From NCBI GenBank assembly GCA_964016885.1, contig OZ024766.1, positions 2,418,001 to 2,482,000 on the forward strand: DNA of 64,000 nt, written 5' to 3'. The notes beneath the pieces are model-generated. The model saw nothing but the letters and a program-made list of their open reading frames with translations. It did not search any database and had not been told where the DNA came from. Origin of the DNA: Eledone cirrhosa (lineage: Eukaryota). The translations under genes were made by a program, and so were the position numbers. Shown piece after piece: positions 5,171-64,000 of the stretch (within the stretch, counting starts at the first letter, position 1; each line of letters starts with the position of its first letter).

Positions 5171-5172
<2 letters not shown>

Positions 5173-5270: not shown

Positions 5271-5303
5271 TCAATATATATATATTTATATTTATTTTTA
5301 AAA

Positions 5304-8930: not shown

Positions 8931-9824
8931 CTAACCAGTGTGTGTTATTTTGTGTTTATTATATTCCCTGTTGCTAATGAAAGATTCCCCACATATTTCA
9001 CAGGGATAAGGTTTCTCTCCAGTGTGTGTTCGTTTGTGACTAGTTAAAAAACTGTTTGTTACAAAAGATTTCCCACATATTTCACAATTATAGGGTTTCT
9101 CTCCAGTATGTATTCTTCTATGTACAGTTAAATAACTGCTCTGTACAAACGCTCTCCCACATATATCACATGGATAGGGTTTCTCTCCAGTGTGTGCCCT
9201 TCTGTGAATTATAAGAACAGCACTATCAGCAAAAGATTTCCCACATATTTCACATTTAAAAGGTTTCTCTCCGGTGTGAATACGTACATGTCTAACAAGA
9301 TTAGATTTCTCTCGAAAAGATTCTCCACATACTTCACAGGGAAATAGTTTTTCTCCACTGTGTGTACGTAAATGCCTAAGAAAATTGTGATTCTGGCTGA
9401 AAGATTTCCCACATGTTTCACATTTGAAGGGTTTCTCTCCAGTATGTGTTCTTTTGTGAATTGCAAGACCACCGAACTCAATGAAAGATTTCCCACATAT
9501 TTCACAATGATAGGGTCTCTCTCCAGTGTGTCTTCTTTTGTGGTTAGTCAATTGACTACTCGTGCCAAAAGATCTCCCACATATGTCACAATCATAGCGT
9601 TTGTCTTTAATATGTATGCGTTTGTGTGTAGATAATTCATCTTCTGATGAAAAAGTTTTCATACAAATCTCACAGCTATATTCAGGAATATTTCCGTGTA
9701 ATGATCCTTGTTCAGTACATGTTTCACTAGGTAAAGGTTTCTCACCACTGTATGTCTGGGTAACTGTATCTATATCGGTAGAAACAGGTGTGGTATACAT
9801 GTCCAAGTATTTAACGCCCTCCAT
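8931..9824 (-). CDS. C2H2 zinc-finger protein, family A copy 2 (9 fingers)
   Basis: 297-aa ORF colinear with 3502..4395; 22 aa differences by manual count. Confidence 0.93.
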   Translation of the reverse strand: MEGVKYLDMYTTPVSTDIDTVTQTYSGEKPLPSETCTEQGSLHGNIPEYSCEICMKTFSSEDELSTHKRIHIKDKRYDCDICGRSFGTSSQLTNHKRRHTGERPYHCEICGKSFIEFGGLAIHKRTHTGEKPFKCETCGKSFSQNHNFLRHLRTHSGEKLFPCEVCGESFREKSNLVRHVRIHTGEKPFKCEICGKSFADSAVLIIHRRAHTGEKPYPCDICGRAFVQSSYLTVHRRIHTGEKPYNCEICGKSFVTNSFLTSHKRTHTGEKPYPCEICGESFISNREYNKHKITHTG

Positions 9825-10561
9825 AGTAATTCTTGAAGAATTCTTCGAAGTTCTGAAGATATATGACTGTGTAAGACTGATGTAGGTATAAGAAAGAGGG
9901 AGTCTGTGTGTGTGTGTCTTAATAAATCAGGATTGTTCACCACGGAGTGTAGAAAAGTACACAATATCTGCTGTGTTAACAATACAAATAATACGTACTT
10001 TATATTTCAAGTCCAAATGTAAAGTCAAGAAAGACCAGGAAAGCTAATTGTTCAGATGTTGGTGATTTAAACCTATTTCTCAGTCCTGTAAAATGTGGAA
10101 CAACCAATTCACGATGTAGCGTAGTTTCTCATGAAATGAAATATTTAATCATGTAGGAGATGGAACACCTACCCTGGAACATGTAGCTCACTCTATGTTA
10201 TCTTTAGAATATTAACTTTCACTTTAACATGAGATAATTGCTACACAAGATATAATTAGATTAATTAATGTTATAATTAAGAGAGCAGGTACGTGGTGTC
10301 GTTGGTAGTGCTTCACTCTCCTGAATAACACCGGTGTAATACGTTAAAGGTCCCTGACATAAATTAAAACCTTCAGAAAGACCTTCAGTTATATCAATTC
10401 ACTCTATCAATTGTATCCAACCCATGGTAAAACAAGCAGCATCACTCAGTGAAATATTTATTACGCATCAAGGAGGGAGTCTCTTACCTGGTTATTGTCC
10501 TGGTAGAAATAGCAGCCAAATCACACTCTGCTGTCATAAAACAGGAAGAACACATTCAGTC

Positions 10562-10592
<31 letters not shown>

Positions 10593-12074: not shown

Positions 12075-13915
12075 GTTGAAAGAGAAACTGTGTTTAAGAG
12101 GGATAAGTTGTAGTGTGCGGGAGAGAAGACTGAGATGGTATGGACATGTGATGTGTTGAGAGAGAAACTGGGTATTAGAGGCATAAGTTGTGGTGTGTGG
12201 GAGAGAAGACTGAGATGGTATGGGCATGTGATGTGTTGAGAGAGAAACTGGGTATAAGAGGGATAAGTTGTGGTGTGTGGGAGAGAAGACTGAGATGGTA
12301 TGGACATGTGATGTGTTAAGAGAGAAACTGGGTATAAGAGGGATAAGTTTTAGTGTGTGGGAGAGAAGACTGAGATGGTATGGACATGTGATGTGTTGAG
12401 AGAGAAACTGGGTATTAGAGGCATAAGTTGTGGTGTGTGGGAGAGAAGATTGAGATGGTATGGACATGTGATGTGTTGATAGAGAAACTGGGTATAAGAG
12501 GGATAAGTTGTGGTGTGTGGGAGAGAAGACTGAGATGGTATGGACATGTGATGTGTTAAGAGAGAAACTGGGTATAAGAGGGATAAGTTTTAGTGTGTGG
12601 GAGAGAAGACTGAGATGGTATGGACATGTGATGTGTTGAGAGAGAAACTGGGTATTAGAGGCATAAGTTGTGGTGTGTGGGAGAGAAGACTGAGATGGTA
12701 TGGACATGTGATGTGTTGAGAGAGAAACTGGGTATAAGAGGGATAAGTTGTGGTGTGCGGGAGAGAAAACTGAGATGGTATGGGCATGTGATGTGTTGAG
12801 AGAGAAACTGGGTATAAGAGGGATAAGTTGTGGTGTGTGGGAGAGAAGACTGAGATGGTATGGGCATGTGATGTGTTGAGAGAGAAACTGGGTATGAGAG
12901 GGATAAGTTGTGGTGTGCGGGAGAGAAGACTGAGATGGTATGGGCATGTGATGTGTTGAGAGAGAAACTGGGTATAAGAGGGATAAGTTGTGGTGTGTGG
13001 GAGAGAAGACTGAGATGGTATGGGCATGTGATGTGTTGAGAGAGAAACTGGGTATAAGAGGGATAAGTTGTGGTGTGCGGGAGAGAAGACTGAGATGGTA
13101 TGGGCATGTGATCTGTTGAGAGAGAAACTGGGTATAAGAGGGATAAGTTGTGGTGTGCGGGAGAGAAGACTGAGATGGTATGGGCATGTGATGTGTTGAG
13201 AGAGAAACTGGGTATAAGAGGGATAAGTTGTGGTGTGCGGGAGAGAAGACTGAGATGGTATGGGCATGTGATGTGTTGAGAGAGAAACTGGGTATAAGAG
13301 GGATAAGTTGTGGTGTGTGGGAGAGAAGACTGAGATGGTATGGACATGTGATGTGTTAAGAGAGAAACTGGGTATAAGAGGGATAAGTTTTAGTGTGTGG
13401 GAGAGAAGACTGAGATGGTATGGACATGTGATGTGTTGAGAGAGAAACTGGGTATAAGAGGGATAAGTTGTGGTGTGTGGGAGAGAAGACTGAGATGGTA
13501 TGGGCATGTGATGTGTTGAGAGAGAAACGGGGTATAAGAGGGATAAGTTGTGGTGTGTGGGAGAGAAGACTGAGATGGTATGGGCATTTGATGTGTTGAG
13601 AGAGAAACTGGGTATAAGAGGGATAAGTTTTAGTGTGTGGGAGAGAAGACTGAGATGGTATGGGCATGTGATGTGTTGAGAGAGAAACTGGGTATAAGAG
13701 GGATAAGTTGTGGTGTGTGGGAGAGAAGACTGAGATGGTATGGGCATGTGATGTGTTGAGAGAGAAACTGGGTATAAGAGGGATAAGTTGTGGTGTGTGG
13801 GAGAGAAGACTGAGATGGTATGGACATGTGATGTGTTGAGAGAGAAACTGGGTATAAGAGGGATAAGTTGTGGTGTGTGGGAGAGAAGACTGAGATGGTA
13901 TGGACATGTGATGTG
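12075..13915 (+). repeat. 80-bp minisatellite, 23 units
   Basis: gagagaagactgagatggta at 12121, 12201 ... 13881. Confidence 0.97.
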
Positions 13916-14747
13916 CATCGAGGATGACTGCTGGGTATTAAGTCATTGCATGGTTGTCTCTCCTGGAAGTTTAAGTCCGTTACATTTGTTTGTGACACCC
14001 TTACAACATCGAATGTTGGTGTCACATATGTTGCCCCAAGCAGCGGGAGAAGAGAATTAGGGCATACTAGACAGACATAACAGGAAATACAAGCAGTGAG
14101 ATGCTACACAAGATCTCAATAAACAAGTTAACCAGTGTTGGACCAGACAATGTCATGTCATTATCTGCCACTAGGTGGCAGGGGAGTTGTTTTTCTCGTA
14201 TGAGAACCATATAGTCAAACAGAAATCTTCTGTTACAGGTCCAGTCAAATCAATTAACAATGGGTAGGCAACGCTTACTAAGTTACGGGACTGACCTGGT
14301 GGGCACACCTTGAGGTAACAGCTTGTCCCCACTTCATGCCATGAAAAGCCAGATTAACTGGCTAAGGGACCTTACCCCAGTACCACTGACCACAGGATTA
14401 ATGGGCTCCTGTGCCCAGCTAATTTGAGATATAATGATTCCTAAGGATATTTGGCCTTTCTTAGTCACCTGAGTAGGTGTCAGCTCTCTTACAACAGCAT
14501 GGCCATTGTCTACAGAAATATCTTTGCTGTTTTGTCCATGGGGTGCAGCAGAAACATTTCCCTGACTTCCCTGTCGAGTCTGTCACCCTCGCCTAATAGT
14601 CCTTACTCTTTTCTTCACTAAGTTCTTCCTCTACTTTCCTTTACAGTCAGATTTGCCCTTCTTCACCCTTTCTCCCTTGGCTTTTCATATACTTAATTTT
14701 CTTGATATCTTTTTTTTAAATATTTCCATTGTATAACTTCTGTTTGT

Positions 14748-15125
14748 AAAATATAGTTGACATGTGTATGACAGCTATCAAAATACAGTTGACATATGTA
14801 TGACAGGTATCAAAATATAGTTGACATGTGTATGACAGGTATCAAAATATAGTTGACATATGTATGACAGTTATCAAAATACAGTTGACATATGTATGAC
14901 AGGTATCAAAATATAGTTGACATGTGTATGACAGGTATCAAAATATAGTTGACATATGTATGACTGCTATCAAAATACAGTTGACATATATATGACAGCT
15001 ATCAAAATATAGTTGACATATGTATGACAGGTATCAAAATATAGTTGACATGTGTATGACAGCTATATAGTTGACATATCTGTGACAGGTATCAAAATAC
15101 AGTTGACATATGTATGACAGATATC
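14748..15125. repeat. 32-bp minisatellite, 12 units
   Basis: Same unit; same 6-bp-short variant as unit 2. Confidence 0.95.
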
Positions 15126-15626
15126 AAAATAAAAGCCTAATTTATAGAATTGATTAGGTAAAAATGAATCAATAAAAAAAAAGGAAAAGACACACATACT
15201 TCCTTAATTACACACCACAACAGGGAATGTTGGTGTTGCTCCCAAGATTTAATATAGCAGACAAGACATTACCTCAGATGATAGAGGGACCCTTAATTAC
15301 ACACACTATAGCAAGCAATGTTAGTGTTGATAAACCAATGATGAAATTTCGGCATAGATTTAAAATTAATTCAAAAAGTCAAGAATAGATCAAAGAAAGA
15401 TTTTAATTTTAAATGAAAATATATTTGTAAAAATGGCCAGCAATGTTTGGAGTCTATCAAACTGCCAAGTATTCACATTTGATATTGGTGGAAAATAAGT
15501 TTAGATTTGTAAGAGGAAGGGTGTCTCGTGTTTCACAGTTAAAAACTTTCCTTCCTCTGTATGTTTGTGTGTAAGTAACTGTTAGAGAAAAAATATTTCC
15601 CACATATTTCAGAGTGTAAAAAGTTT

Positions 15627-16856
15627 CTAACCAGTGTGTGTTATTTTGTGTTTATTATATTCACTGTTACTAATAAAAGATTCCCCACATATTTCACAGG
15701 GATAAGGTTTCTCTCCAGAGTGTGTTCGTTTGTGACTAGTTAAAAAACTGTTTGTTACAAAAGATTTCCCACATATTTCACAATGATAGGGTTTCTCTCC
15801 AGTATGTATTCTTTTATGTATAGTTAAATAACTGCTCTGTACAAACGCTTTCCCACATATATCACATGGATAGGGTTTCTCTCCAGTGTGTGCCCTTCTG
15901 TGAACTATAAGAACAGCACTATCAGCAAAAGATTTCCCACATATTTCACATTTAAAAGGTTTCTCTCCCGTGTGAAGACGTATATGTCTAACAAGATTAG
16001 ATTTCTCTCCAAAAGATTCTCCACATACTTCACAGGGAAATAGTTTTTCTCCACTGTGACTACGTAAATGCCTAATAAAATTGTAATTCTGGCTGAAAGA
16101 TTTCCCACATGTTTCACATTTGAAGGGTTTCTCTCCAGTATGTGTTCTTTTGTGAACTGCAACACCACCGAACTCAGAGAAAGATTTCCCACATATTTCA
16201 CAATGATAGGGTTTTTCTCCAGTATGTGTTCTATAGTGGCGAGTCAAGTCACTACGCCTGCTAAAAGATTTCCCACATATTTCACAATGATAGGGTTTTT
16301 CTCCAGTATGTGTTCTATAGTGTAAAGTTAAATTATTGTTATTAGGAAAAGATTTCCCACATACATCACAATGATAGGGTTTCTCTCCGGTATGTATTCT
16401 TTTATGTTCAGTTAAATAATCAGTTCTTACAAAAGTTTTCCCACATATATCACAATGATTGCGTTTCTCTCGTGTGTGTGATCTTTTGTGGTTAGTCAAT
16501 TCACCACTCCTATTAAAAGATTTCCCACATATTTCACAATGAAAAGGTTTCTCTCCTGTGTGTGTTCTTTTGTGGTTAGTCAAGTCACCACTCCTATTAA
16601 AAGATTTCCCACATATGTCACAATGATAGGGTTTGTCTTTAATATGTATGAGTTCGTGTGTAGATAATTCATCTTCTGATGAGAAAGTTTCACTACAAAC
16701 CCCACAGCTATATTCAGGAATATTTCCGTGTAATGATCCCTGTTCAGTATATGTTTCAGTAGGTAATGGGTTCTCACCACTGTATGTCTGTGTAACTGTA
16801 TCTATATCGGTAGAAACAGGTGTGGTATACATGTCCAAGTATTTAACGCCCTCCAT
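15627..16856 (-). CDS. C2H2 zinc-finger protein, family A copy 3 (13 fingers)
   Basis: 409 aa = copy 1 plus 4x28 aa; same leader and last 7 fingers. Confidence 0.93.
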   Translation of the reverse strand: MEGVKYLDMYTTPVSTDIDTVTQTYSGENPLPTETYTEQGSLHGNIPEYSCGVCSETFSSEDELSTHELIHIKDKPYHCDICGKSFNRSGDLTNHKRTHTGEKPFHCEICGKSFNRSGELTNHKRSHTREKRNHCDICGKTFVRTDYLTEHKRIHTGEKPYHCDVCGKSFPNNNNLTLHYRTHTGEKPYHCEICGKSFSRRSDLTRHYRTHTGEKPYHCEICGKSFSEFGGVAVHKRTHTGEKPFKCETCGKSFSQNYNFIRHLRSHSGEKLFPCEVCGESFGEKSNLVRHIRLHTGEKPFKCEICGKSFADSAVLIVHRRAHTGEKPYPCDICGKAFVQSSYLTIHKRIHTGEKPYHCEICGKSFVTNSFLTSHKRTHSGEKPYPCEICGESFISNSEYNKHKITHTG

Positions 16857-18169
16857 AGTAATTCTTGAAGAATTCTTCGAAGTTCTGAAGATATATAACT
16901 GTGTAAGACTGATGTAGGTATAAGAAAGAGGGAGTCTGTGTTTGTTTGCGTCTTAATAAATGAGGATTGTTCACCACGGAGTGTAGAAAAGTACACAATA
17001 TCTGCTGTGTTAACAATACAAATAATACGTACTTTATATTTCAAGTCCAAATGTAAAGTCAAGAAAGACCAGGAAAGCTAATTGTTCAGATGTTGGTGAT
17101 TTAAACCTATTTCTCACTGTCCTGTAAAATGTGGAACAACCAATTCACGATGTAGCGTAGTTTCTCATAAAATGAAATATTTAATCATGTAGGAGATGGA
17201 ACACCTACCCTGGAACATGTAGCTCACTCTATGTTATCTTTAGAATATTAACTTTCACCTTAACATGAGATAATTGCTACACAAGATATAATTAGATTAA
17301 TTAAAGTTATAATTAAGATAGCAGGTACGTGACGACGTTGGTAATGTTTCCTTCTGCGGAACAACACCGGTGTAATACGTTAAAAGTCCTTGACATAATT
17401 TAATACCTTCAGTTATATCAATTCACTCCATCAATTTTATCCAACACATCTTCCCTTCCACCCCCTCTCGTTTGAACTCGCACGCAACCGCAGCTCTCTC
17501 CCTCTTCACCAATTACTCCCGACCCCGCTTAAACACTTGCCATTACATCACCAACACCACCACCTTCCGTGGGTACAACCGCCAATTCTTAGTAGTCCCC
17601 GACTGCTGTACCATCCTGTCTATGCGCCCCACTGCACGCTAAGGTGAAGCGAAGCAGAGTTAGTAAGTGTTGTTAGAGATGAAATAACATAGAATAAATG
17701 GTTTCGTTTAAATATAAAATTTACTCCACTTCCGTGAATAAAGGAACAAAGAATGAGATTACTTCTCGTCATAAAAATTGCCGATGTTTTTGTTGTTATT
17801 TCGTTATGGTGAAATAGAGAGTTGCAAGATGGTTGGTTAGTCGTAGCAGTAAGGTAGTAGTCCTCGCCCAGTGACAAGGGTAGGTGACGTTTTATTTTGG
17901 TTATAGAAAATTCTCTTTGTCCCTTCAGGACAGCCTATTTATACTGATCTATGACCTCCCGCTATCTTCTCCTCCCTTGGCGTCGTTAAATCTAGCATCA
18001 GGATTCTTCATGGGTTTTTCTGTAGGTGTGGTCAAAGGTCGATTTTTATTGGCCCAATCTACTTTTGAAGGGTTCTTTTAAAACCCACAATAAAAATTCT
18101 CATTTAAATGAAAGTAAATCTATTCACTGATAATAGTATATGATAGTGCACATACTTAAATATGGAATG

Positions 18170-21340: not shown

Positions 21341-22486
21341 CTAACCAGTGTGTGTTATTTTGTGTTTATTATATTCACTGTTACTAATGAAAGATTCCCC
21401 ACATATTTCACAATGATAGGTTTTCTCTCCAGTGTGTGTTCGTTTGTGACTAGTTAAAAAACTGTTTGTTACAAAAGATTTCCCACATATTTCACAATGA
21501 TAGGGTCTCTCTCCAGTATGTATTCTTCTATGTACAGTTAAATAACTGCTCTGTACAAACGCTTTGCCACATATATCACATGGATAGGGTTTCTCTCCAG
21601 TGTGTGCTCTTTTGTGAACTATAAGTACAGCACTATCAGCAAAAGATTTGCCACATACTTCACAGTGAAAAGGTTTCTCTCCGGTGTGAATACGTATATG
21701 TCTAACAAGATTAGGCTTCTCAGCAAAAGATTCCCCACATACTTCACAGGGAAATAGTTTTTCTCCACTGTGACTACGTAAATGCCTAACAAAATTGTAA
21801 TTCTTGCTGAAAGATTTCCCACATGTTTCACATTTGAAGGGTTTCTCTCCAGTATGTATTCTTTTGTGAACTGCAACACCACCGTACTCAGAGAAAGATT
21901 TCCCACATATTTCACAATGATAGGGTTTCTCTCCAGTGTGTGTTCTATAGTGTCGAGTCAATTGACTACTCCTGCCAAAAGATTTCCCACATATGTCACA
22001 ATGATAGGGTTTTTCTCCAGTATGTGTTCTATAGTGTAAAGTTAAATTATTGTTAGAAGGAAAAGATTTCCCACATACTTCACAATGATAGGGTTTCTCT
22101 CCGGTATGTGTTCTTTTATGTTCAGTTAAATAACTACTTCTTACAAAAGATTTCCCACATACTTCACAATGATTGGGTTTCTCTTGTGTGTGTGTTCTTT
22201 TGTGGTTAGTCAAGTCACCACTCCTATTAAAAGATTTCCCACATATGTCACAATGATAGGGTCTGTCTTTAGTATGTATGTGTTCGTGTGTAGATAATTC
22301 ATCTTCTGATGAGAAAGTTTCACTACAAATCTCACAGCTATATTCAGGAATATTTCTGTGTAATGATCCTTGTTCAGTACATGTTTCACTAGGTAAAGGT
22401 TTCTCACCACTGTATGTCTGTGTAACTGTATCTATATCGGTAGAAACAGGTGTGGTATACATGTCCAAGTATTTAACGTCATCCAT
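21341..22486 (-). CDS. C2H2 zinc-finger protein, family A copy 4 (12 fingers)
   Basis: 381 aa = copy 1 plus 3x28 aa. Confidence 0.93.
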   Translation of the reverse strand: MDDVKYLDMYTTPVSTDIDTVTQTYSGEKPLPSETCTEQGSLHRNIPEYSCEICSETFSSEDELSTHEHIHTKDRPYHCDICGKSFNRSGDLTNHKRTHTQEKPNHCEVCGKSFVRSSYLTEHKRTHTGEKPYHCEVCGKSFPSNNNLTLHYRTHTGEKPYHCDICGKSFGRSSQLTRHYRTHTGEKPYHCEICGKSFSEYGGVAVHKRIHTGEKPFKCETCGKSFSKNYNFVRHLRSHSGEKLFPCEVCGESFAEKPNLVRHIRIHTGEKPFHCEVCGKSFADSAVLIVHKRAHTGEKPYPCDICGKAFVQSSYLTVHRRIHTGERPYHCEICGKSFVTNSFLTSHKRTHTGEKTYHCEICGESFISNSEYNKHKITHTG

Positions 22487-24196
22487 AGTAATTCTTGAAG
22501 AATTCTTCGAAGTTCTGAAGATATATAACTGTGTAAGACTGATGTAGGTATAAGAAAGAGGGAGTCTGTGTTTTTTTGTGTCTTAATAAATCAGGATTGT
22601 TCCCCACGGAGTGTAGAAAAGTACACAATATCTGCTGTGTTAACAATACAAATAATACGTACTTTATATTTCAAGTCCAAATGTAAAGTCAAGAAAGCTA
22701 ATTGTTCAGATGTTGGTGATTTAAACCTATTTCTCACTGTCCTGTAAAATGTGAAACAACCAATTCACGATGTAGCGTAGTTTCTCATAAAATGAAATAT
22801 TTAATCATGTAGGAGATGGAACACCTACCCTGGAACATGTAGCTCACTCTATGTTATCTTTAGAATATTAACTTTCAGTTTAACATGAAATAATTGCTAC
22901 ACAAGATATAATTAGATTAATTAAAGTTATAATTAAGAGAGCAGGTACGTGGTGTCGTTGGCAAAGTTTCGCTCTCCTGAATAACACCGGTGTCATACGT
23001 TAAAAGTCCCTGACATAATTTAAGACCTTCTGTTATATCAATTCACTCCATCAATTTTATCCAACACATCTTCCCTTCCACCCCCTCTCGTTTGAACTCG
23101 CACGCAACCGCAGCTCTCTCCCTCTTCACCAATTCCTCCCGACCCCGCTTAAACACTTGCCATTACATCACCAACACCACCACCTTCCGTGGGTACAACC
23201 GCCAATTCTTAGTAGTCCCCGACTGCTGTACCATCCTGTCTATGCGCCCCACTGCACGCTAAGGTGAAGCGAAGCAGAGTTAGTAAGTGTTGTTAGAGAT
23301 GAAATAACATAAAATAAATGGTTTCGTTTAAATATAAAATTTACTCCACTTCCGTGAATAAAGGAACAAAGAATGAGATTACTTCTCGTCATAAAAATTG
23401 CCGATGTTCTTGTTGTTATTTCGTTATGGTGAAATAGAGAGTTGCAAGATGGTTGGTTAGTCGTAGCAGTAAGGTAGTAGTCCTCGCCCAGTGACAAGGG
23501 TAGGTGACGTTTTATTTTGGTGATAGAAAATTCTCTCTGTCCCCTAAGGACAGCCTATTTATACTGATCTATGACCTCCCGCTATCTTCTCCCTTGGCGT
23601 CGTTAAATCTAGCATCAGGATTCTTCATGGGTTTTTCTGTAGGTGTGGTCAAAGGTCGATTTTTATTGGCCCAATCTACTTTTGAAGGGTTCTTTTAAAA
23701 CCCGCAATAAAAATTCTCATTTAAATGCAAGTAAATCTATTCACTGATAATAGTATATGACAGTGCACATACTTAAATATGGAATGTTACGCGATGCCCC
23801 CCCCCCCCCCCTCACACACACACAGCCCCGGCGGACAGGATGGAGAAGGCGTTCCCCTGGAGGACGGCAAGGGAGATGCGCTGGAAAATCCATTTTGAAT
23901 GTGGGTTTTAAGAGAAACCCTCAAAAGTAGATTGGGCCTATAAAAATCGACCTTTGACCACACCTACAGAAAAACACACGAAGAATCCCTAAAAATAGTT
24001 ATTTCACTAAAGTTCCTCATACATTTAGCCCTGTATGTCAAATGTTGAACATTTATGTAAATTTTAATACATATTTATTTCATAAACAACATTGCAAATA
24101 GTTTGCAATTCTTTCAGAATGAAAATATAAACAGAGCATATGAATAAATTTACAGTAGAATAACATAACAAATATGTTTTAAATATATACATAAAT

Positions 24197-26207: not shown

Positions 26208-27634
26208 AACACTTTGTTGGTTTTTATATTGTTTGAAATTCTATTGAAATTTGTTATTTTTAAACCTGAAATATTAGAATATTTGAAAATCTCAAGGTAG
26301 TGTCATTAATTTTGATGGTGTCATTGACTCCCTAATGTAAAGTTACAAGAAAATTTTAAAATATTAAAACTTAGTTACAGAGAAAACTAAGTTTTCTATC
26401 AAATCAGTATCGAACTTATCAACTTATTGATTACTTGTAGGGCTTAAATTTAAGTCACTTGTTAGTATGATCGAGCAGATCTATATTGAAGGTGTTCCAA
26501 CAGTATCTATTTCTTTCTTTCTAAGTATATACAGTGTGCATTTTGGTGTCCTTCCGTTGACATAAACATGTAGAGAGTGATTTGGCTGCTATTTCTAGCA
26601 CTTCAAGCAACGAGGTAAGAGTCTCCCTAATTATTTCACTGGGTGATGCTGCTTGTTTTACCATGGGTTGGGTACAATTGACGGAGTGAATTGATATAAC
26701 TGAAGGTCTTTCTGAAGGTATTAAATTGTCAGGGACCTTTAACGTATGACACCGGTGTTTGCAGGAGAGTAAACGACACCATGTACCTGCTATCTTAATT
26801 ATAACTTTAATTAATCTAATTATATATTGTGTAGCAATTATCTCATGTTAAGGTGAAAGTTACTATTCTGTAGATAACATAGAGTGAGCTACATGTTCCA
26901 GAGTAGGTGTTCCATCTCCTACATGATTAAATATTTCATTTCATGAGAAACTACGCTACATCGTGAATTGGTTGTTCCACATTTTACAGGACAGTGAGAA
27001 ATAGGTTTAAATCACCAACATCTGAACAATTAGCTTTCCTGGTCTTTCTTGACTTTACATTTGGACTTGAAATATAAAGTACGTATTATTTGTATTGTTA
27101 ACACAGCAGATATTGTGTACTTTTCTACACTCCGTGGTAAACAAGCCTGGTTTATTAGGTCAACACACGTATACAGAAATAAACACGATAATATAGTCTG
27201 CCACCTCATCCCGAATATATACACACACACATTATTTCCGGTCATCAGTCTTATACTGTCATGTCTATTCTTACTTTACAGTTGTGTCAACTGAGAGTTC
27301 CATTATAATCTGTAGAAGGACGACTTTGATCAGAACATCTGCTATCGGTCATTTATAGACAAAACATCTTGTTTTAGACTACATAGCATCCATTAACTAT
27401 AGCCACCTTTCTTAACAAAAAAATAGAAGTATTTTCCTCTACATCAATATATATGTAGCACTTGGAGAGGACTCACTTTGCTACAAGAATGCTAGTGGTA
27501 TGTAGAAAATATATCTACATTGCATATTTTCCACATGTAAACATAGTCCTATGATATCTAAGACAAGAAACTGAACTGTAATATATTATAAATACAGATA
27601 TTTCTCAACTTTTAAGAATTCTTCAAGAATTACA

Positions 27635-28711
27635 ATGGAGGACGTTAAACCCTTGGACATTTCTACCACAGCTGTTTCTACCAATATAGATACAGTTATA
27701 CAGACATACAGTGGTGAGAAACCTTTACCTAGTGAAACATGTACTGAACAGGGATCATTACACAGAAATATTCCTGAATATAGCTGTGAGATTTGTAAGA
27801 AAACGTTTTCAACAAAAGATGAATTATCCACACACAAAAATATACATACTAAGAAAAAACTCTACGACTGTGAAATATGTGGGAAATCTTTCGTTAAAAC
27901 TTCTTATCTTGTAGACCATGTTCGATGTCACACTGGAGAGAAACCCTATCACTGTGAACTATGTGGAAAATCTTTTGTTAACACCAGTCACTTAAACACA
28001 CATAAAAAAATACACAGGGGAGAAAAACCCTTCCACTGCGAAATATGTGGGAAATCATTCACTCAAAAAACTAATCTTGTAGTTCACAAAAGAACACACA
28101 CTGGAGAAAAACCTTTTAAATGTGAAATATGTGAGAAATCTTTCACTCAAAATTCTAGTTTAGATATCCACAAACGTAGTCACACTGGAGAAAAACCCTT
28201 CCACTGTGAATTATGTGGTAAGTCTTTCACATCTAATTCACATCTTGCTGATCACAAACGAATACACACTGGTGAAAAACCTTTCCATTGTGAAATGTGT
28301 GGAAAATCATTTTCTTTTAATTCTAGTCTTACTATCCACAAAAGAACACATACTGGAGCAAATCTATTTTATTGTGAAATATGTGGGAAATCTTTTGTCT
28401 ATAATAGCGATTTAATAAAACACCAAAGAATACACACTGGAGAGAAACATTTTCTTTGTGAGATATGTGGGAAGTCTTTTACTCAGAATTCTACTCTTAT
28501 TCGCCACAAACATAGTCACACTGGAGAAAAGCCATACCACTGTGAAATATGTGGCAAATCTTTTGTCCAGAACTCTAGTTTAGATATTCACAACCGAATA
28601 CACACTGGGGAAAAACCTTACCATTGTGAAATATGTGGTAAATCTTTTGTCTCTAACAGTGATTTAAATAGACACAAACACACACACACTGGAGGGAAAC
28701 TTTTAAACTGA
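27635..28711 (+). CDS. C2H2 zinc-finger protein, family A (11 fingers), the only + strand gene
   Basis: 358-aa [16 protein letters not shown] leader, TGEKP-linked fingers. Confidence 0.92.
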
Positions 28712-30997: not shown

Positions 30998-32212
30998 CTA
31001 CTGCCCTGAATGAATATCTATATGTCTAGTTAAGTTACTTTTTTGAGAGAATGATTTATCACAGATATCACAGTGATATGGCTTCTCTCCTGTATGAGTA
31101 CGTCTGTGTTTAGTTAAAGTACCATTCGCAGAGAATGATGTACCACAGATATCACACTGATATGGTTTCTCTCCTGAATGAATACGTTTGTGTTTAGTTA
31201 AGTCAGTACCCCCAGAGAATGATTTACCACAGATATCACAGTGATACGGTTTCTCTCCTGTATGAATACGTTTATGTTTAAATAAGTTAGCTGCATGAGA
31301 GAATGATTTACCACAGACATCACAGTGGTATGGCTCCTCACCTGTATGAACACGTTTATGATTAGTTAAGATACTACGTATAGAGAAAGATTTTCCACAA
31401 ATCTCACAGTGATATGGCCTCTCTCCCGTGTGAACATACTTGTGAATAGTTAACCTACTTCTTTCAGTGAAAGATTTACCACAAATTTCACAGTGATATG
31501 GCTTCTCTCCTGTGTGAACATACTTGTGTGCAGTTAATGTACTTCTTACAGAAAATGATTTGCCACAGTCATGACAGTGATATGGCTTCTCTCCTGTATG
31601 AGTACGCTTGTGTGTAATTAAAGCAGTTGTACAAGAAAATGAATTTCCACAGACATCACAGTGATATGGCTTCTCACCTGTATGAGTACGTTTATGAGCA
31701 GTCAGGTTAACATTTTGAGAGCATGATTTACCACAAATATCACAGTGGTATGGTTTCTCTCCTGTATGAATTCGTTTGTGTTTAATTAAGGTACTTTTGT
31801 CAGAGAATGATTTACCACAGATGTCACAGTGATGAGGTCTCTCGCCTGTGTGAATGCGTTTGTGAAAAGTCAACTTCTTTTTTTCATAGAATGATTTATC
31901 ACAGATATCACACTGGTATGGCTTGTCACAGATATCACTGGGATATGTATTCTCTTCTCTATGAATATATTTATGTGTAGTTAAGCTAGATGTATGAGAG
32001 AATGATTTACCACAGATATCACAGTGATATGGTTTCTCTCCTGTATGAGTACGTTTGTGTATATTTAAGTTACCTTTTTGAGAAAATGATTTACCACAGA
32101 TATCACAATGGTATGGTTTCTCTCCTGTATGAATATATTTATGTGAAATTAAATAATCTTTCCGAGAGAATGATTTACCACAGACATCACAGTGATGTGA
32201 TGTTGCTTCCAT
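30998..32212 (-). CDS. C2H2 zinc-finger protein, family B (14 fingers)
   Basis: Frame open to 32293; first ATG at 32212 ([11 protein letters not shown]); [11 protein letters not shown]-type fingers; one partial finger remnant (YPSDICDKP). Start uncertain. Confidence 0.88.
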
Positions 32213-37311: not shown

Positions 37312-38625
37312 TTAACCAGTGTGTATTCCTTTGTGCTTAGTTAAAGCACCACTAGAGACAAAAGATTTCCCACATATTTCACAATGAAAAGGTTTCTCTC
37401 CAGTGTGTGTTCTTTTGTGTACGGTTAAAGCGCTGTTAATGACAAAAGATTTCCCACATATTTCACAGTGATAGGGTTTCTCTCCAGTGTGACTACGCAT
37501 GTGCACAAGTAGATGAAAATTCTGAGGGAATGACTTTGTACATATTTCACAATGATAGGGTTTTTCTCCAGTGTGTGTTCTTTTGTGGACAAACAAATGA
37601 GTGTTCCTGCCAAAAGATTTCCCACATGTTTCACATTGAAAGGGTTTCTCTCCAGTATGTGTTCTTATATGTACAGTTAAATCACCACTAGTGACAAATG
37701 CTTTCCCACATATTTCGCAATGAAATGGTTTCTCTCCAGTGTGTGTTCTTTTATGTATTTTTAAGCTACAGACAGAGAGAAAAGATTTTCCACATGTTTC
37801 ACAGTGGAAAGGTTTGTCTCCAGTGTGTGTTTTTTTGTGAAGAGTTAAATAACTGCTTTTAATAAAACATTTCCCACATGTTTCACAGTGGAAGGGTGTC
37901 TCTCCGGTGTGTGTTCTTTTGTGTACAGTTAAATCTGTGTTACTGACATAAGATTTCCCACATGTTTCACAGTGAAAGCGTTTTTCTCCCCTGTGTGTTC
38001 TTTTGTGAATAAGCAGATCATCATTTTCAATGAATGTTTTCCCACATGTTTTGCAGTGGAAGTGTTTTTCTCCATTATGACTACCCATGTGGCTAACAAG
38101 ATTGGAATTGCGAGTGAAAGATTTCCCACATATTTCACAGTGAAAGGGTCTCTCTCCTGTGTGTATTTTTTTATGTCCATTTAACCGACTTGTAGAGACA
38201 AAAGATTTCCCACATATTTCACAATGATACATTTTTTCTCCAGTATGTATTCTTTTGTGGACTAAAAGACTATAATTTAGAGAGAAAAATCTTCCACATA
38301 TTTCACAGCAGAAGGGTTTTTCTCCAGTGTGACTTCGTAAGTGCCTAACAAGACTAATTTTCCAAGTGAAAGAATTCCCACATATTTGACAGTGGAAAGG
38401 TTTGTCTTTGGTGTGTGTTTCTTTGTGTGTGCATAATTCATCTTCTGATGAGAAAGTTTCATTACAAATCTCACAGCTATATTCAGGAATATTTCTGTGT
38501 AATGATCCATGTTCAGTACATGTTTCACTAGGTAAAGGTTTCTCACCACTGTATGTCTGTGTAACTGTATCTATATTGGTAGAAACAGGTGTGGTAGAAA
38601 TGTCCAAGGGTTTAACGTCTTCCAT
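37312..38625 (-). CDS. C2H2 zinc-finger protein, family A (14 fingers)
   Basis: ATG at 38625 gives the [10 protein letters not shown] leader shared with paralogs; ORF-track start 38670 is TTG. Confidence 0.92.
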   Translation of the reverse strand: MEDVKPLDISTTPVSTNIDTVTQTYSGEKPLPSETCTEHGSLHRNIPEYSCEICNETFSSEDELCTHKETHTKDKPFHCQICGNSFTWKISLVRHLRSHTGEKPFCCEICGRFFSLNYSLLVHKRIHTGEKMYHCEICGKSFVSTSRLNGHKKIHTGERPFHCEICGKSFTRNSNLVSHMGSHNGEKHFHCKTCGKTFIENDDLLIHKRTHRGEKRFHCETCGKSYVSNTDLTVHKRTHTGETPFHCETCGKCFIKSSYLTLHKKTHTGDKPFHCETCGKSFLSVCSLKIHKRTHTGEKPFHCEICGKAFVTSGDLTVHIRTHTGEKPFQCETCGKSFGRNTHLFVHKRTHTGEKPYHCEICTKSFPQNFHLLVHMRSHTGEKPYHCEICGKSFVINSALTVHKRTHTGEKPFHCEICGKSFVSSGALTKHKGIHTG

Positions 38626-39428
38626 TGTAATTCTTGAAGAATTCTTAAAACTCGAGAAGAGGTATGACAATGTACGAGTGATTTGGGGTAATAAATGGTC
38701 CTCTATGTACTTATATATATATGATCGAAGTTCTGAAGATATATGACTGTGTAAGACTGATGTCGGTATAAGAAAGTGTAAGAGAGAGAGTGTGTGGGTG
38801 TTTGTGTCTTAATAAATCAAGATTGTTTACCCCAGAGTATAAAAAAGTACACAATATCTGCAGTGTTAACAATACAAATAATACGTACTTTATATTTCAA
38901 GTCCAAGTGTAAAGTCAAGAAAGACCAGGAAAGCTAATTGTTCAGATGTTGGTGATTTAAACCTATTTCTCTCTGTCCTGTAAAATGTGGAACAACCAAT
39001 TCAAGATGTAGCGTAGTTTCTCATGAAATGAAATATTTAATCATGTAGGAGATGGAACACCTACCCTGGAACATGTAGCTCACTCTACAGAATATTAACT
39101 TTCACTTTAACATGAGATAATTACTACATATAATTAGATTAATTAATGTTATAATTAAGATAGCAGGTACGTAGTATCGTTGGTAATACTTCATTCTCCT
39201 GAATAACACCGGTGTCATACGTTAAAAGTCCCTGACATAATTTACGACCTTCAGTTATATCAATTCACTCCATCAATTGTATCCAACCCCTGGTAAAACA
39301 AGCAACATCGCCCACTAAAATAACTATTACATATCAACGAGGCTGTCTCTTACCTGGTTGCTCAATGTGTTAGAAATAGCAGTCAACTCACTATTTACCA
39401 TATTACAACGATGGAAAAATACGTTCGG

Positions 39429-42083: not shown

Positions 42084-43283
42084 TCATACTCCTGTATGAA
42101 TACGTATATGTTTAGCCAAGCTGCTGTTTTGAGAGAATGATTTATCACAGATGTCACAATGATATGGCTTCTCTCCTTTCTGAGTACATGAGTGTGTAGT
42201 TAAATTAGTTTTCTGAGAGAATGATTTACCACAGACATCACAGTGATGAGGCTTCTCTCCTGTATGAACCAACTTGTGTCTCGATAAGTGACTTACCTGT
42301 GAGAATGTTTTGCTACAGATATCACAGTGATGAGGCTTCTCTCCTGTATGATTGTATTTGTGTCTCGTTAAGCTAACCGTATGAGAGAATGATTCACCAC
42401 AGATATCACACTGATGAGGCTTCTCACCTGTGTGGATATATTTGTGTTTAGTTAAATTTCCCTTATCACAGAATGATTTACCACAGACATCACAGTGATA
42501 TGGTTTCTCTCCTGTATGAGTATATTTGTGAGTAGTTAAGCCAGTTGTATGAAAGAATGATTTACCACAGACATCACAATCATATGGTTTCTCTCCTGTA
42601 TGAACATATTTGTGTGTTGTTAAGTTACCTGCTTGAGAGAATGATTTACCACAGACATCACAGTGATATGGCTTCTCCCCTGTATGAATATATGTGTGTT
42701 TATCTAAGCCACCTTTTTGAGAGAATGATTTACCACAGACATCACACTGATATGGCTTCTCTCCTGTATGAACAAGCTTGTGTTTAGTAAAATTTCCTTT
42801 ATCAGAAAATGATTTACCACAGATATGACAGTGATATGGTTTCTCTCCTGTGTGAATATATTTATGAGTAGTTAAACCTGCTGCATGAGAGAATGATTTA
42901 CCACAGATATCACAGTGATAAAGTTTCTCTCCTGTATGAATAGATTTGTGTGTCGTTAAATGATCCTTTTGAGCAAATGATTTACCACATGTATCACATA
43001 GATATGGCTTTTCTCCTGTGTGAATATGTTTGTGTTTCATTAAGTTACCTTTATCAGAGAATGATTTATCACAGATATCACATTGATATGGTTTCTCTCC
43101 TGTATGAGTACGTTTGTGTGTTATTAACCGACTAATGTGAGGAAATGATTTATCACAGGTCTCACAGTGATATGGCTTTGCTCTGGTGTGAGAATGTTTG
43201 TGTTTTATGAGGCTATCTTCTCGGGAGAATGATTTACTACAGAATTCACAGTCGTATGATAATGTTCCTACTTGCTTTGACAT
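42084..43283 (-). CDS. C2H2 zinc-finger protein, family B (14 fingers, finger 13 lacks last His)
   Basis: ATG at 43283 (MSKQVG) aligns with MSKANG/MSKEIG of paralogs; frame stays open ~45 codons upstream. Confidence 0.9.
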
Positions 43284-43777
43284 CTCTTCAGGTAAAAAGG
43301 ATAAATCTGAAAATGATGCTAATTCCTTTGTAAATTCCTCCAAATTTAATAAGAATGCAATATCTTCTTGTACACTTTCCAGATACTGAAGAGGAGAAAT
43401 TTTTCTATGAACTTCAGTTCAGAAGAAATATTTCACTGTAATCCACCAAATGTTGATATAAAATGGTTCAGGTTAGTTCTGCGTAAAATATTCTTTTAGT
43501 TGTTTAAAAGATGCTATTGATGATATAGCTGAAGTTAAACTCTCTCCTCTGTCAATGTCAGGTGATATTCTGAAATAACAGAGAAACAAAATATGATATA
43601 GAGGAGAGGATATTAAAATGTTGTGATTCAACAATGGGAATTATACAAAATTTCTATATCGATAAACTGTAAAAACTTTCACCTAAATAATTTAACTTTT
43701 CAAATATATCCTTATATCTTAAAGTCTAAAAGTGTGTTTGTGTGTATATATATAAATATATATATATACGTATATAC

Positions 43778-44510
43778 GAAGCTTGCATGCTCCGCTGGAT
43801 GTGTAACAGTAATATACGTGAACGGCAAAGCATAAACGAACTAAGGAAAAAATTAGAAATAAGAGGGATCAGATGTTGTTTACTCGAGAGAAGACTATGT
43901 TGGTACGGTCACGTGATGCGCATGATAGACGACAGCTGTATAACAAAGTGCAGGGCAATAAAGATAGACGGTAGCCACGGAGTAGGCAGACCCAGAAAAA
44001 CATGGGACGAGCTGATAAATTCCGACCTCACACGCTTACACCTCTCCAAGACAATGTCACTGGACCGAGACCTTTGGCGGTACTCAGTAATAGAGAAGAC
44101 CCGCCTTACCTAAATACAAAGTAAAAACCTACTACAGTCAGTAGGCACCTCTATCAAAACACACCCCCGTCCCACCACCTCCACCCCACCCACACCGCCC
44201 CTTTCAATGTAAAGTTATGTTGGTGCCACAAAATCCAGGCCGAAACAAATGAGATCGTGTAGGTGTCACGACAAAAAAACACACAGTCCACGCTGTAATG
44301 TGGCCGTGTAGGCAACACGGTAAAAACCTCCCAGACCCACACTGTAAACGTGGTTGATGTTAGGAAGGGCATCCAACTGTAGAAAGCCTGCCAGACAGTC
44401 CTATGCGAGCAAGACAACCACTCTTGCCTCAAGTGGGAAAACCCCCGTCCAAACCCATGCAAGCGTGGAACACGGACGCTAAACCTGATGATGATGATGA
44501 TGATGATGAT
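43778..44510 (+). mobile_element. RTE LINE 3' remnant with (GAT)n tail
   Basis: MLRWMC...RRLCWYGHVMRM...GRPRKTW...DRDLWR, 3'UTR and tail. Confidence 0.88.
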
Positions 44511-45120
44511 ACATTCATCCATCCATCCATATCCAGTTTTGGTATTTAGGGTGCTGCGGTTGCCCTGGACTCCGAGGTAGACAACGCCAGGCAATGTCTC
44601 ACAGTCGCTCTCCATGAATTTCTGTCCACAGTATCGACATCGGCCAAGTTCCACTTATATAAATCACTCTTCACCCACTCCAACCACGCCTTCCTTGGTC
44701 CGCCGCGATCTCTGGGGCCAGGGATTGCCAAGTGAGTGATGGAGTTGATGTATGGCGTGGTTCGCTGTACATGTCCTTACCAACAGAGACGCTGTGTGTG
44801 AAGGACAGCAGTGATCTCATCCCCACCCAGCTTCTGGTGCAGCACAGTCGAGGAGCCCACCAGATAATAGAACGGGAGAATTTGTCAAAAGCTATCTCTA
44901 GGTCAACAAAAGCCGAGTACAGGGGTTTACCTTTCATCATCATCATCATCATCATCATCATTTTACGTCCGCTTTTCCCTGCTTGCAAGGGTGGGACGGG
45001 AACTGGTTCTGGCTTGATTTCTACAGCTGGATGCCCTTCCTAACACCAACCTCATTTACAGTGAGTGCTGGGTGCTTTTTTTTTTGCCGTGGCACCTCCA
45101 CGACCACTTTGCAGTGGAAT
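44511..45120 (-). mobile_element. Stacked LINE fragments
   Basis: GPRKAWLEWVKSDL...DRNSWR with (GGAT)n tail; AFVDLEIAFD RT motif; RTE 3' tail with (CAT)n. Confidence 0.7.
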
Positions 45121-56862: not shown

Positions 56863-58089
56863 TTAAATGTGAGTTCTTTTGTGTGAATTTAAATTACTTT
56901 TATTAAGAAAAGATTTTCCACATATTTCACAGGGGAAATGTTTTTCGCTTGTGTGTCTTCTTTTGTGCGTATTCAAGTCACTTCTTGTGACAAAAGATTT
57001 CTCACATATTTCACATTGGAAGGGTTTCTCTCCTGTGTGACTTCGTACGTGGATAACAAGACAAGAATTCCGAGTGAAAAATTTCCCACACATTTCACAG
57101 TGGAAGGGTTTTTCTCCAGTGTGTGTTCTTTTATGTCTATTTAAATAACTGTTAATGATAAAAGATTTCCCACATATTTCACAGTGGAAATTTTTTACTC
57201 CAGTGTGTGTTATTGTATGTGTAATTAATTCACCGTTAGTAACAAAAGATTTCTCACATATTTCACAGTGGAATTTCTTTTCTCCTCTGTGTCTTTTCAT
57301 GTGTTTATTCAAGTCACTGCTTGTAACACAAGATTTCCCACATATTTCACAATGAAAGGGTTTCTCTCCAGTGTGTATTCTTTTGTGTGCGGTTAAATTA
57401 CCGTTTTTCACAAAAGATTTACCACATATTTCACAATGGAAGGGTTTCTCTCCAGTGTGTATTCTTTTGTGAGATATTAAGCAACTGTTAGTGACAAAAG
57501 ATTTACCACATATTTCACAATGATAGGGTTTCTCTCCAGTGTGTGTTCTTTTGTGCGTATTTAAGTCACTGCTTGTAACACAAGATTTCCCACATATTTC
57601 ACAATGAAAGGGTTTCTCTCCAGTGTGTGTCCTTTTGTGTACAGTTAAATTACAGTTTTTCCCAAAAGATTTTCCACATATTTCACAGTGGAATGGTTTT
57701 TCTCCTGTGTGAATACGTATGTGGTAAACAAGATGAGACTTTTTAGGGAAAGATTTCTCACAAATTTCACAATGAAAAGGTTTCTCTCCTGTGTGACTTC
57801 GTATGTGTTCAAGAAGATGAGAAGTTTTAGTGAAAGATTTCCCACATATTTCACATTGGAAGGGTTTGTCTTTAGTGTGTGTGTCTTTGTGTGTGGATAA
57901 TTCATCTTTTGATGAGAAAGTTTTCTTACAAACCCCACAGCTGTATTCAGAAATATTTCTGTGTATTGATCCTTGTTCAGTACATGTTTCCCTAGGTAAA
58001 GGTTTCTCACCACTGTATGTCTGTGTAACTGTATCTATATTGGTCGAAAAAGGTGTGGTAGAAATGTCCAAGGGTTTAACGTCCTCCAT
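56863..58089 (-). CDS. C2H2 zinc-finger protein, family A (13 fingers)
   Basis: 408-aa ATG ORF with [10 protein letters not shown] leader. Confidence 0.92.
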   Translation of the reverse strand: MEDVKPLDISTTPFSTNIDTVTQTYSGEKPLPRETCTEQGSIHRNISEYSCGVCKKTFSSKDELSTHKDTHTKDKPFQCEICGKSFTKTSHLLEHIRSHTGEKPFHCEICEKSFPKKSHLVYHIRIHTGEKPFHCEICGKSFGKNCNLTVHKRTHTGEKPFHCEICGKSCVTSSDLNTHKRTHTGEKPYHCEICGKSFVTNSCLISHKRIHTGEKPFHCEICGKSFVKNGNLTAHKRIHTGEKPFHCEICGKSCVTSSDLNKHMKRHRGEKKFHCEICEKSFVTNGELITHTITHTGVKNFHCEICGKSFIINSYLNRHKRTHTGEKPFHCEMCGKFFTRNSCLVIHVRSHTGEKPFQCEICEKSFVTRSDLNTHKRRHTSEKHFPCEICGKSFLNKSNLNSHKRTHI

Positions 58090-59227
58090 AGTAATTCTTG
58101 AAGAATTCTTAACAATTGGGAAATATCTGTGTTTATAATATATAACAGTTCAGTTTCTTGTCTTAGATATCATAGGACTATGTTTACATGTGGAAAATAT
58201 GCAATGTAGATATATTTTCTACATACCACTAGCATTCTTGTAGCAAAGTGAGTCCTCTCCAAGTGCTACATATATATTGATGTAGAGGAAAATACTTCTA
58301 TTTTTTTGTTAAGAAAGGTGGCTATAGTTAATGGATGCTATGTAGTCTAAAACAAGATGTTTTGTCTATAAATGACCGATAGCAGATGTTCTGGTCAAAG
58401 TCGTCCTTCTACAGATTATAATGGAACTCTCAGTTGACACAACTGTAAAGTAAGAATAGACATGACAGTATAAGACTGATGACCGGAAATAATGTGTGTG
58501 TGTATATATTCGGGATGAGGTGGCAGAATATATGATCGTGTGTTTATTTCTGTATACGTGTGTTGACCTAATAAACCAGGCTTGTTTACCACGGAGTGTA
58601 GAAAAGTACACAATATCTGCTGTGTTAACAATACAAATAAGACGTACTTTATATTTCAAGTCCAAATGTAAAATCAAGAAAGACCAGGAAAGCTAATTGT
58701 TCAGATGTTGGTGATTTAAACCTATTTCTCACTGTCCTGTAAAATGTGGAACAACCAATTCACGATGTAGCGTAGTTTCTCATGAAATGAAATATTTAAT
58801 CATGTAGGAGATGGAACACCTACCCTGGAACATGTAGCTCACGCTATGTTATCTACAGAATATTAACTTTCACCTTAACATGAGATATAATTAGATTAAC
58901 TAAAGTTATAATTAAGAGAGCAGGTACGTGGTGTCGTTGGTAATGCTTCACTCTCCTGAATAACACCGGTGTCATACGTTCAAAGTCCCTGACATAATTT
59001 AATACCTTCAGAAAGACCTTCAGTTATATCAATTCACTCCATCAATTGTATCCAACCCATGGTAAAACAAGCAGCATCACTCAGTAAATTATTTATTACG
59101 TATCAACGAAGGAGTCACTTACCTGGTTACTTGACCTGGTAGAAATAGCAGCCAAATATCCCTCTAGCTCTAAATAAACATCGGCCATATACTGCAGTTT
59201 AGTCATACATAAACACACACTCACGTG

Positions 59228-62652: not shown

Positions 62653-64000
62653 TCAGAGTGTAAAACGTTTTTTACCAGTGTGTGTTATTTTGTGTTTAAT
62701 ATATTCACCATTACTAGTGAAAGATTTCCCACATATTTCACAGTGATAGGGTTTCTCTCCAGTGTGCCTTCTTCTGTGAACTAGAAGAACAGCACTATCA
62801 GCAAAAGTTTTCCCACATATTTCACAGTGGAAAGGTTTTTCTCCAGTGTGACTACGTATGTGCCGAACAAGATCAGTTTTCTCAGCAAAAGATTTCCCAC
62901 ATATTTCACAGTGGAAAGATTTTTCTCCAGTGTGATTACGTATATGCCTAATAAAATTGGAATTCAGTGTGAAAGATTTCCCACAAAGTTTACAGTGATA
63001 GGGTTTTTCTCCAGTGTGTGTTCTTTTATGTACAGTTAAATAACTGCTAGAAGCAAAAGATCGCCCACATATTTCACAGTGGAATGAATTTTCTCCAGTG
63101 TGACTACGTATATGTCTAAGAAGATTAGATTTCACAGTGAAAGCTTTCCCACATATTTCACAATGAAAGGGTTTTTCTCCAGTGTGTGTTCTTTTGTGTA
63201 GAGTTAAATTTCTGTTAGAAGCAACAGATTTCCCACATATTTCACAATGATAGGGTTCCTCTCCAGTATGTGTTCTTTTATGTACAGTTAAATCATTTCT
63301 TTTCATAAATGTTTTCCCACATATTTCACAGTGATAGGGTTTCTCTCCAGTATGTCTTCTTTTATGAACTGTAAGTACAGCATTATCAGCAAAACATTTC
63401 CCACATATTTCACAGAAGAAAGGTTTTTCTCCGGTGTGAATACGTATATGCCTAACAAGATGAGCTTTCTCAGCAAAAGATTTCCCACATATTTCACAGT
63501 GGAAAGGTTTCTCTCCAGTGTGGGTACGTGTATGCTTAACAAGATTAGCTTTCTCAGCAAAAGATTTCCCACATATTTCACAGTGAAAACCTTTTTCTCC
63601 ACTGTGACTACGTATATGCCTAATAAAATTGGAATTCAGCGTGAAAGATATACTACATATTTCACAGTGGAAGGGCTTCTCTCCACTATGTGTCTTTTTG
63701 TGTCTATTCACGGCACTATTACGGGCAAAAGATTTCCCACAAATTTTACAATGATAGGGTTTTTCTCCAGTATGTGTTCTCGTATGTAAAGTTAAATTTA
63801 TGTTAGAAGCAAAAGATTTCCCACATATTTCACAGTGATAGGGTTTGTCTTTAATATGTATGTGTTTGTGTGTGGATAATTCATCTTCTGATGAGAAAGT
63901 TTTCTTACAAATCTCACAGCTATATTCACAAATATTTATGTGTAATGATCCCTGTTCAGTACATGTTTCACTAGGTAAAGGTTTCTCACCACTGTATGTT
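62653..64000 (-). CDS. C2H2 zinc-finger protein, family A (15 fingers), 5' end outside the window
   Basis: Frame open from the window edge ([20 protein letters not shown]...) through 63711 to TGA at 62653. Confidence 0.9.
   Translation of the reverse strand, partial: TYSGEKPLPSETCTEQGSLHINICEYSCEICKKTFSSEDELSTHKHIHIKDKPYHCEICGKSFASNINLTLHTRTHTGEKPYHCKICGKSFARNSAVNRHKKTHSGEKPFHCEICSISFTLNSNFIRHIRSHSGEKGFHCEICGKSFAEKANLVKHTRTHTGEKPFHCEICGKSFAEKAHLVRHIRIHTGEKPFFCEICGKCFADNAVLTVHKRRHTGEKPYHCEICGKTFMKRNDLTVHKRTHTGEEPYHCEICGKSVASNRNLTLHKRTHTGEKPFHCEICGKAFTVKSNLLRHIRSHTGENSFHCEICGRSFASSSYLTVHKRTHTGEKPYHCKLCGKSFTLNSNFIRHIRNHTGEKSFHCEICGKSFAEKTDLVRHIRSHTGEKPFHCEICGKTFADSAVLLVHRRRHTGEKPYHCEICGKSFTSNGEYIKHKITHTGKKRFTL

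Follow-up and report, generated by a model that had tools for sequence, protein, structure and literature searches.

Does a constant N-terminus on otherwise variable zinc-finger arrays mark an effector domain? The question is raised by a cluster of C2H2 genes in a 64-kb stretch of DNA (the window, G000:C27:2418001-2482000) from a 3.0-Gb octopod genome, in which an initial annotation had read the common leader and first finger of one gene family as a candidate repressor module, KRAB-like in role, with a CtBP-like PLDIS motif. The window holds eight family-A C2H2 genes, among them the focal gene, and four unrelated family-B genes, with the following features in window coordinates.

26830..27150, forward strand: non-coding block upstream of the focal gene, with a putative promoter or 5' UTR role
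27151..27634, forward strand: variable spacer between block and ATG, ~100-500 bp among copies, with deletion variants and CA/TA microsatellites; possibly an intron
27635..28711, forward strand: focal family-A gene, 358 aa, comprising a 50-residue leader, an acidic finger 1 and ten canonical fingers
27635..27784, forward strand: acidic leader of 50 codons, predicted to be disordered, weakly constrained
27650..27664, forward strand: PLDIS, codons 6-10 of the leader, a minority variant of HLDIS
27701..27742, forward strand: 14-residue remnant of a C2H2 linker plus half finger within the leader, from nhmmer and shuffles
27785..27847, forward strand: finger 1, C2H2 with an acidic helix and a non-TGEKP linker, from Pfam zf-C2H2 and the AlphaFold2 fold
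27869..28711, forward strand: array of 10 canonical C2H2 fingers up to the stop codon
3502..4810, reverse strand: paralogue, ATG at 4395, YLDMY, 9 fingers, block at 4501-4810
8931..10245, reverse strand: paralogue, ATG at 9824, YLDMY, 9 fingers, block at 9928-10245
15627..17281, reverse strand: paralogue, ATG at 16856, YLDMY, 13 fingers, block at 16963-17281
21341..22901, reverse strand: paralogue, ATG at 22486, YLDMY, 12 fingers, block at 22592-22901
37312..39128, reverse strand: paralogue, ATG at 38625, PLDIS, 14 fingers, block at 38823-39128
56863..58887, reverse strand: paralogue, ATG at 58089, PLDIS, 13 fingers, block at 58576-58887
62653..63999, reverse strand: paralogue running off the window edge, 15 fingers, its start (L089) just outside the window reading QLDIS
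30998-32212, 42084-43283, 50598-51545 and 52416-53531, all reverse strand: family-B C2H2 genes, 11-14 fingers, without the leader

The focal protein is a poly-C2H2 (Krueppel-type) protein, with Pfam zf-C2H2 matched in 11 stretches and TGEKP linkers between tandem fingers. A single uninterrupted ORF covers leader and array with no intron between them, so the N-terminus appears not to have an exon of its own. Much of what the initial annotation described within the window holds: the ATGs at 27635 (+), 38625 (-) and 58089 (-) open a common 11-residue start, and the leader and a CxxCxxTFS[ST][EK]DELxTH first finger followed by a non-TGEKP linker are found in all eight family-A genes, the eighth being cut at the window edge. 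PLDIS as a family trait fares less well, being present in three of the eight, with YLDMY in four and QLDIS in the last. Likewise, the arrays are unrelated between sub-lineages but not within them, as the four YLDMY genes have their last 7 fingers in common. A 320-bp non-coding block precedes all seven complete family-A genes, and was missed in the annotation as part of the common unit.

Other elements of the window were also recorded. Family-B genes start only 7-11 residues ahead of their first Cys, and three of the four have an upstream block of their own (430-480 bp, 75-92% identical) that is unrelated to the family-A block. Positions 1-17400 consist of ~5.4-kb duplication units (93-98% identical pieces), each with one YLDMY gene and also holding 48-, 80- and 32-bp minisatellites; an 80-bp minisatellite array of 23 copies lies at 12075-13915. 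Short frames at 43730-45043, recognised by eye, resemble fragments of a LINE reverse transcriptase.

Across the genome, the leader and finger 1 head at least 220 C2H2 genes. A search with both yielded 8119 candidates, of which 150 were scored and all 150 matched (76-100% identity), while a search with one outside homologue (150 scored of 1010 candidates) supplied older copies. Three matches of the latter search were left out and seven block-selected loci (L128-L134) were treated separately; collapsing identical stretches gave an analysed set of 149 young and 71 older copies. The total of 220 is a lower bound, and its leaders are biased towards intact ones because copies were picked by protein similarity. 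They are spread over 21 large and six small contigs, and 177 keep at least eight fingers in frame, with 30 keeping three or fewer. Many truncated copies lie at G000:C18 4.8-12.4 Mb and C28 126.8-127.0 Mb; several are near-identical pairs (e.g., L040/L110), which suggests a duplicated, pseudogene-rich region or a retained haplotype. One sub-lineage (L019, L020, L030, L094-L098 and others) has lost the linker that separates finger 1 from finger 2, and the two fingers abut (HKHKHCETC).

Outside this genome, a profile of 20 leaders matched 16 of 1.84 billion representative proteins. Six have a recognisable leader, three of them named Octopus bimaculoides; the remaining ten comprise unrelated repeats and generic finger proteins (P0008 and P0010 not inspected). 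The O. bimaculoides homologues, in proteins named zinc finger protein 239-like and 664, are 41-58% identical to the leader, whose frame and ~50-residue length have been kept since the split. These diverged homologues indicate that the front-end module predates the recent burst of copies. A single-sequence word search with the leader found no match, a miss of sensitivity given the profile result. A second profile search returned only five already known proteins and no squid-named one, which is weak evidence on range, and the ESM Atlas gave generic C2H2 clusters only.

The most specific claim about the front end was that PLDIS recruits CtBP. Zinc-finger repressors such as ZNF366 and ZNF516 recruit CtBP through PxDLS motifs, and the fourth residue of known CtBP-binding PxDLS motifs is L or M. 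Like them, some family-A copies carry a near-match in a region predicted to be disordered; unlike them, none of the 220 copies contains PxDL, and the motif is not conserved. PLDIS occurs in 30 copies against 88 with HLDIS, and DLS in none. Position 6 is H in 121 copies, P in 42, Q in 33 and Y in 13; position 9 is I in 178, T in 23, M in eight (all YLDMY) and N in eight, never L. Far from standing out among its neighbours, the motif includes the most variable leader column, position 6 (54% modal residue in 127 ungapped young copies), for which a 105-copy tree shows 18 changes. PLDIS is found in none of the 71 older copies, and its proline therefore looks derived. The leader-profile search, which had been proposed as a way to find conserved PLDLS variants, revealed no PLDIS or PxDL in the six outside homologues, where the region reads RLNTS, RLDAS, HLDTS, HLETS, HLDTA and HLDTS. 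On the deep tree, dN/dS for codons 5-10 does not fall significantly below neutrality (0.59, p 0.07), and their pN exceeds pS among young copies.

CtBP recruitment through PLDIS is thus unlikely, despite several points in its favour. The genome has a CtBP exon (L210, G000:C2:352182668-352185799) identical to that of O. bimaculoides at 49 of 49 residues, of the 220 copies 199 retain L7, 203 D8 and 193 S10, and the predicted disordered N-terminus would suit a short linear motif. The proline may also be dispensable, since the RAI2 motif ALDLS, which has none, binds CtBP at ~5 uM (PMC11187106). Set against the rarity, position-9 residues and weak constraint of the motif, these points leave KRAB-independent repression via CtBP extremely improbable, even for the ~30 copies that have PLDIS. 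A complex prediction that paired leader residues 1-35 with residues 20-358 of O. bimaculoides CtBP scored 0.00, but it used no alignments and a tool not validated for peptides or disordered chains, and the score carries no weight here. In the open literature searched, 'PLDIS' and CtBP were not found together. The other reading offered for this region, DVKP as an inverted SUMO site, depends on the same proline as PLDIS and so applies to only 37 of the 220 copies. The inverted SUMO consensus, a [DE]xK-hydrophobic pattern, fits 40 copies and is not a conserved site, and K5 is replaced by N in 19 of 45 deep representatives.

If not through this motif, the leader as a whole might act as a domain. 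It has a net charge of -5, and AlphaFold2 (46-sequence alignment) predicts no secondary structure for residues 1-40 (pLDDT ~44), with fingers 1 and 2 folding normally. Residues 1-50 matched no Pfam family at E up to 10, KRAB included. In 100 intact young copies, the MG94 codon model gave a dN/dS of 0.77 for leader codons 2-49 (p 0.04 against 1), with 0.96 for the motif-bearing codons 2-25, 0.61 for codons 26-49 and 0.76 for finger 1; the IQ-TREE GY model gave 0.657 for the leader. On the deep tree of 45 non-redundant copies the leader value was 0.79 (p 0.02), with 0.63 for codons 2-25 and 1.03 for codons 26-49, and E2, D8, D19, E34 and Y49 lay below neutral. Leader pN/pS in 33 disjoint gene pairs was 0.96 (CI 0.69-1.39). 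These estimates span 0.66-0.96 by method, which is not the range of a strongly conserved N-terminal domain; the tree-based ones are biased by recombination, and those for the half-leaders flip between the young and deep sets. Constraint on the leader therefore appears weak at most, and falls mainly on acidic residues and Y49.

The leader is probably translated from the annotated ATG, and not from a start downstream of the motif, because 124 of 127 young copies retain the start Met and, in 150 of 175 intact copies, it is the only Met among the first 75 residues. The figure of 44 of 45 deep-set copies with an ATG is partly built in, as the starts of older copies were moved to the closest Met. 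The A at -3 (211 of 220 copies) does not serve as a Kozak argument, since it belongs to a conserved AATTA run.

Comparison with the family's own fingers points to where part of the leader came from. At the DNA level, codons 23-36 match a linker and half finger of the family itself (nhmmer E 7.7e-8, profile of its own finger pairs), and the score of codons 24-50 was reached by none of 2000 shuffles. On this evidence, the middle of the leader is a decayed TGEKP linker and half finger, and the outside homologue P0015 retains THTGEK at the relic position. A finger origin for codons 1-25, which bear PLDIS, was not supported (1731 of 2000 shuffles scored as high). The second leader half and finger 1 also recur within or behind arrays (L129, L131, L134, L135 and L140).

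The leader tolerates considerable change, including in-frame deletions of 3, 6 and 15 nt. At L130 (G000:C27:2301600-2306000), the block and ~15 leader codons are in frame with 16 fingers and finger 1 is deleted. L135 (G000:C27:16846000-16852500) has ~11 tandem copies, in frame, of a 72-nt unit from the first leader half, alternating between PLDIS and QLDIS, in addition to a second leader half and finger 1 inside its array; it would be a multivalent test case if PLDIS bound anything. Of the seven block-selected loci, only L133 has a frameshifted leader, and its array is frameshifted too.

Finger 1 had been called almost invariant, which does not extend genome-wide: in 127 young copies E52 is kept in 76%, R55 in 73% and E63 in 80%, and older copies read SSEHEVFTH. 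It is nevertheless under purifying selection on the deep tree (dN/dS 0.51, p 1e-5; ligands 0.04; helix 0.48, p 5e-4), from which we infer that it is kept folded. In young disjoint pairs its pN/pS is 1.00 (CI 0.59-1.83). The net charge of its helix is -2.5, compared with +0.4 in other fingers, and S60 and E63 fit a helix capping box. A zf_UBZ identity was rejected, with a Pfam score of 22 bits against a cut-off of 25.6.

The picture behind this finger is quite different, and bears out the description of a constant front end on fast-diversifying DNA-reading arrays. The 1257 fingers of 102 genes carry 670 distinct contact fingerprints, and 59% of gene pairs have less than 20% of alignable fingers in common. 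In the 33 disjoint pairs, pN/pS is 1.84 at base contacts (95% CI 1.53-2.18) and 0.06 at zinc ligands, with 0.65-0.73 at ordinary finger framework positions. The ligand and contact values together indicate that the arrays are functional and diversifying at their base-contact residues.

The constancy of the front end extends into non-coding DNA. Of 520 candidate copies of the 320-bp block, 40 were scored, and these are 97-99% identical; in 80 genes the mean pairwise difference of the block is 0.042, compared with a leader pS of 0.062-0.075 and pN of 0.041-0.073. In 145 of 147 block matches a leader lies within 1.3 kb. The spacer differs far more (pairwise 0.28, inflated by deletion variants). 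An Rfam search of the block gave no match. Within it, GCTACATGTTCCAG (window 26885-26910, +) resembles a ZNF143-type promoter motif. A short 5' UTR exon could lie between two candidate splice sites, an acceptor (TTTTACAG) near 26989 and a donor (GTACGT) near 27079.

The histories of these front-end parts are mosaic. Synonymous divergence (pS) in the cassette amounts to 0.59 of that in the arrays (CI 0.43-0.75) across the same 33 disjoint pairs. Distances in the block are uncorrelated with those in leader plus finger 1 (rho -0.03, against 0.46-0.67 in 20 single-tree simulations), and the four-gamete share of 0.23 is above all 20 simulations (0.14-0.19), which assume one rate model and to which alignment gaps could add noise. 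Such discordance suggests that paralogues have exchanged sequence by gene conversion or recombination. At greater depth the block is no better kept than the leader: it is 79-81% identical in distant copies (L057, L116-L122 and L123) against 86-92% for the leader, and was found within 1.5 kb in only 26 of the 71 older copies.

Taken together, we consider it probable that family A is an octopod poly-C2H2 subfamily of at least 220 genes whose common 5' cassette serves as a promoter and start module that duplication has spread and gene conversion has homogenised, and not as a CtBP-recruiting effector. This cassette comprises the upstream block, start codon, acidic leader and odd first finger. The block would drive common expression and the front end supply the start codon; the leader may be a translated, flexible acidic spacer, and finger 1, given its acidic helix, may be structural and is unlikely to read bases. 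Specificity would lie in the arrays, reshuffled and selected at their contacts for diverse DNA targets, plausibly repeats. The greater uniformity of the block than of the leader argues for this, as do the absence of leader and finger 1 from family B and the 16 in-frame fingers that L130 keeps without finger 1 and most of the leader. Against it stand the retention of leader frame and length since the O. bimaculoides split, some purifying selection on the leader, constraint on the finger-1 helix and the poor preservation of the block at depth.

The annotated analogy with KRAB holds in so far as a constant front end sits on diversifying arrays, but the role given to the leader is weakened by its near-neutral evolution, predicted disorder and loss in L130. 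It is doubtful, if arguable, that leader and finger 1 are a young octopod effector of KRAB or FiNZ type, in which the acidic helix and leader residues dock a cofactor other than CtBP. The module is also present in O. bimaculoides, finger 1 is constrained on the deep tree and distinctively acidic, the arrays are under diversifying selection as in KZNF and FZNF, and FiNZ is likewise short and acidic (PMC10547256). Leader constraint is, however, close to that of ordinary finger framework and far from that of zinc ligands, finger 1 is neutral in young pairs, the module is deleted in L130 and absent from family B, the leader has no predicted fold, and conservation of S60 and E63 may be structural. 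A bolder version, which we hold to be distinctly unlikely, is an octopod equivalent of KRAB or FiNZ made from decayed fingers, in which finger 1 and the relic-finger leader would dock a silencing cofactor for 200+ readers under one gene-converted promoter cassette. Nor does the family look as if it lacked protein-level function and were mostly a neutral side effect of segmental duplication or of a mobile repeat. The copies with three or fewer fingers in frame, their spread over 21 large contigs and the ~5-kb duplication units that take in flanking repeats in the window would fit such an origin, yet most copies keep at least eight fingers in frame, and the ligand and contact pN/pS values make it very unlikely.

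KRAB zinc-finger genes are known for clustered birth-and-death evolution. Family A resembles them in this and in its constant front end on diversifying arrays; it differs in that its leader has no KRAB or other Pfam family, no predicted fold and no known corepressor link. Octopus-specific C2H2 expansions have been described as large lineage-specific clusters (Holzinger et al., 2025, PMC12513265), and family A, with its large poly-C2H2 clusters, is a well-defined subfamily that probably belongs to expansions of this kind. The term 'N-terminal' does not occur in the portion of that text covered, and no description of the octopus leader or cassette was found in the open literature searched. According to Wells et al. 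(2023, PMC10547256), FiNZ of cyprinid fish is a highly conserved, acidic domain of 28 aa on its own exon, and octopus ZNFs in aggregate show predicted TE enrichment. Family A is like FiNZ-ZNFs in its hundreds of clustered paralogues, short acidic N-terminus and positive selection at base contacts; it is unlike them in that its leader lies in the reading frame of the array, evolves almost neutrally, derives in part from a decayed finger and can be lost, and transposon repression is at most a candidate role for it.

Cephalopod C2H2 expansions are large, and family A is a subfamily amenable to study, in which selection at DNA contacts is clearly diversifying. Its near-identical block and start region mean that one reagent could knock down many members, as in zebrafish FiNZ, and such a multi-member knock-down would probe transposon control in octopods. 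More generally, a constant N-terminus on variable arrays can arise by homogenisation at the DNA level, and need not mark an effector domain.
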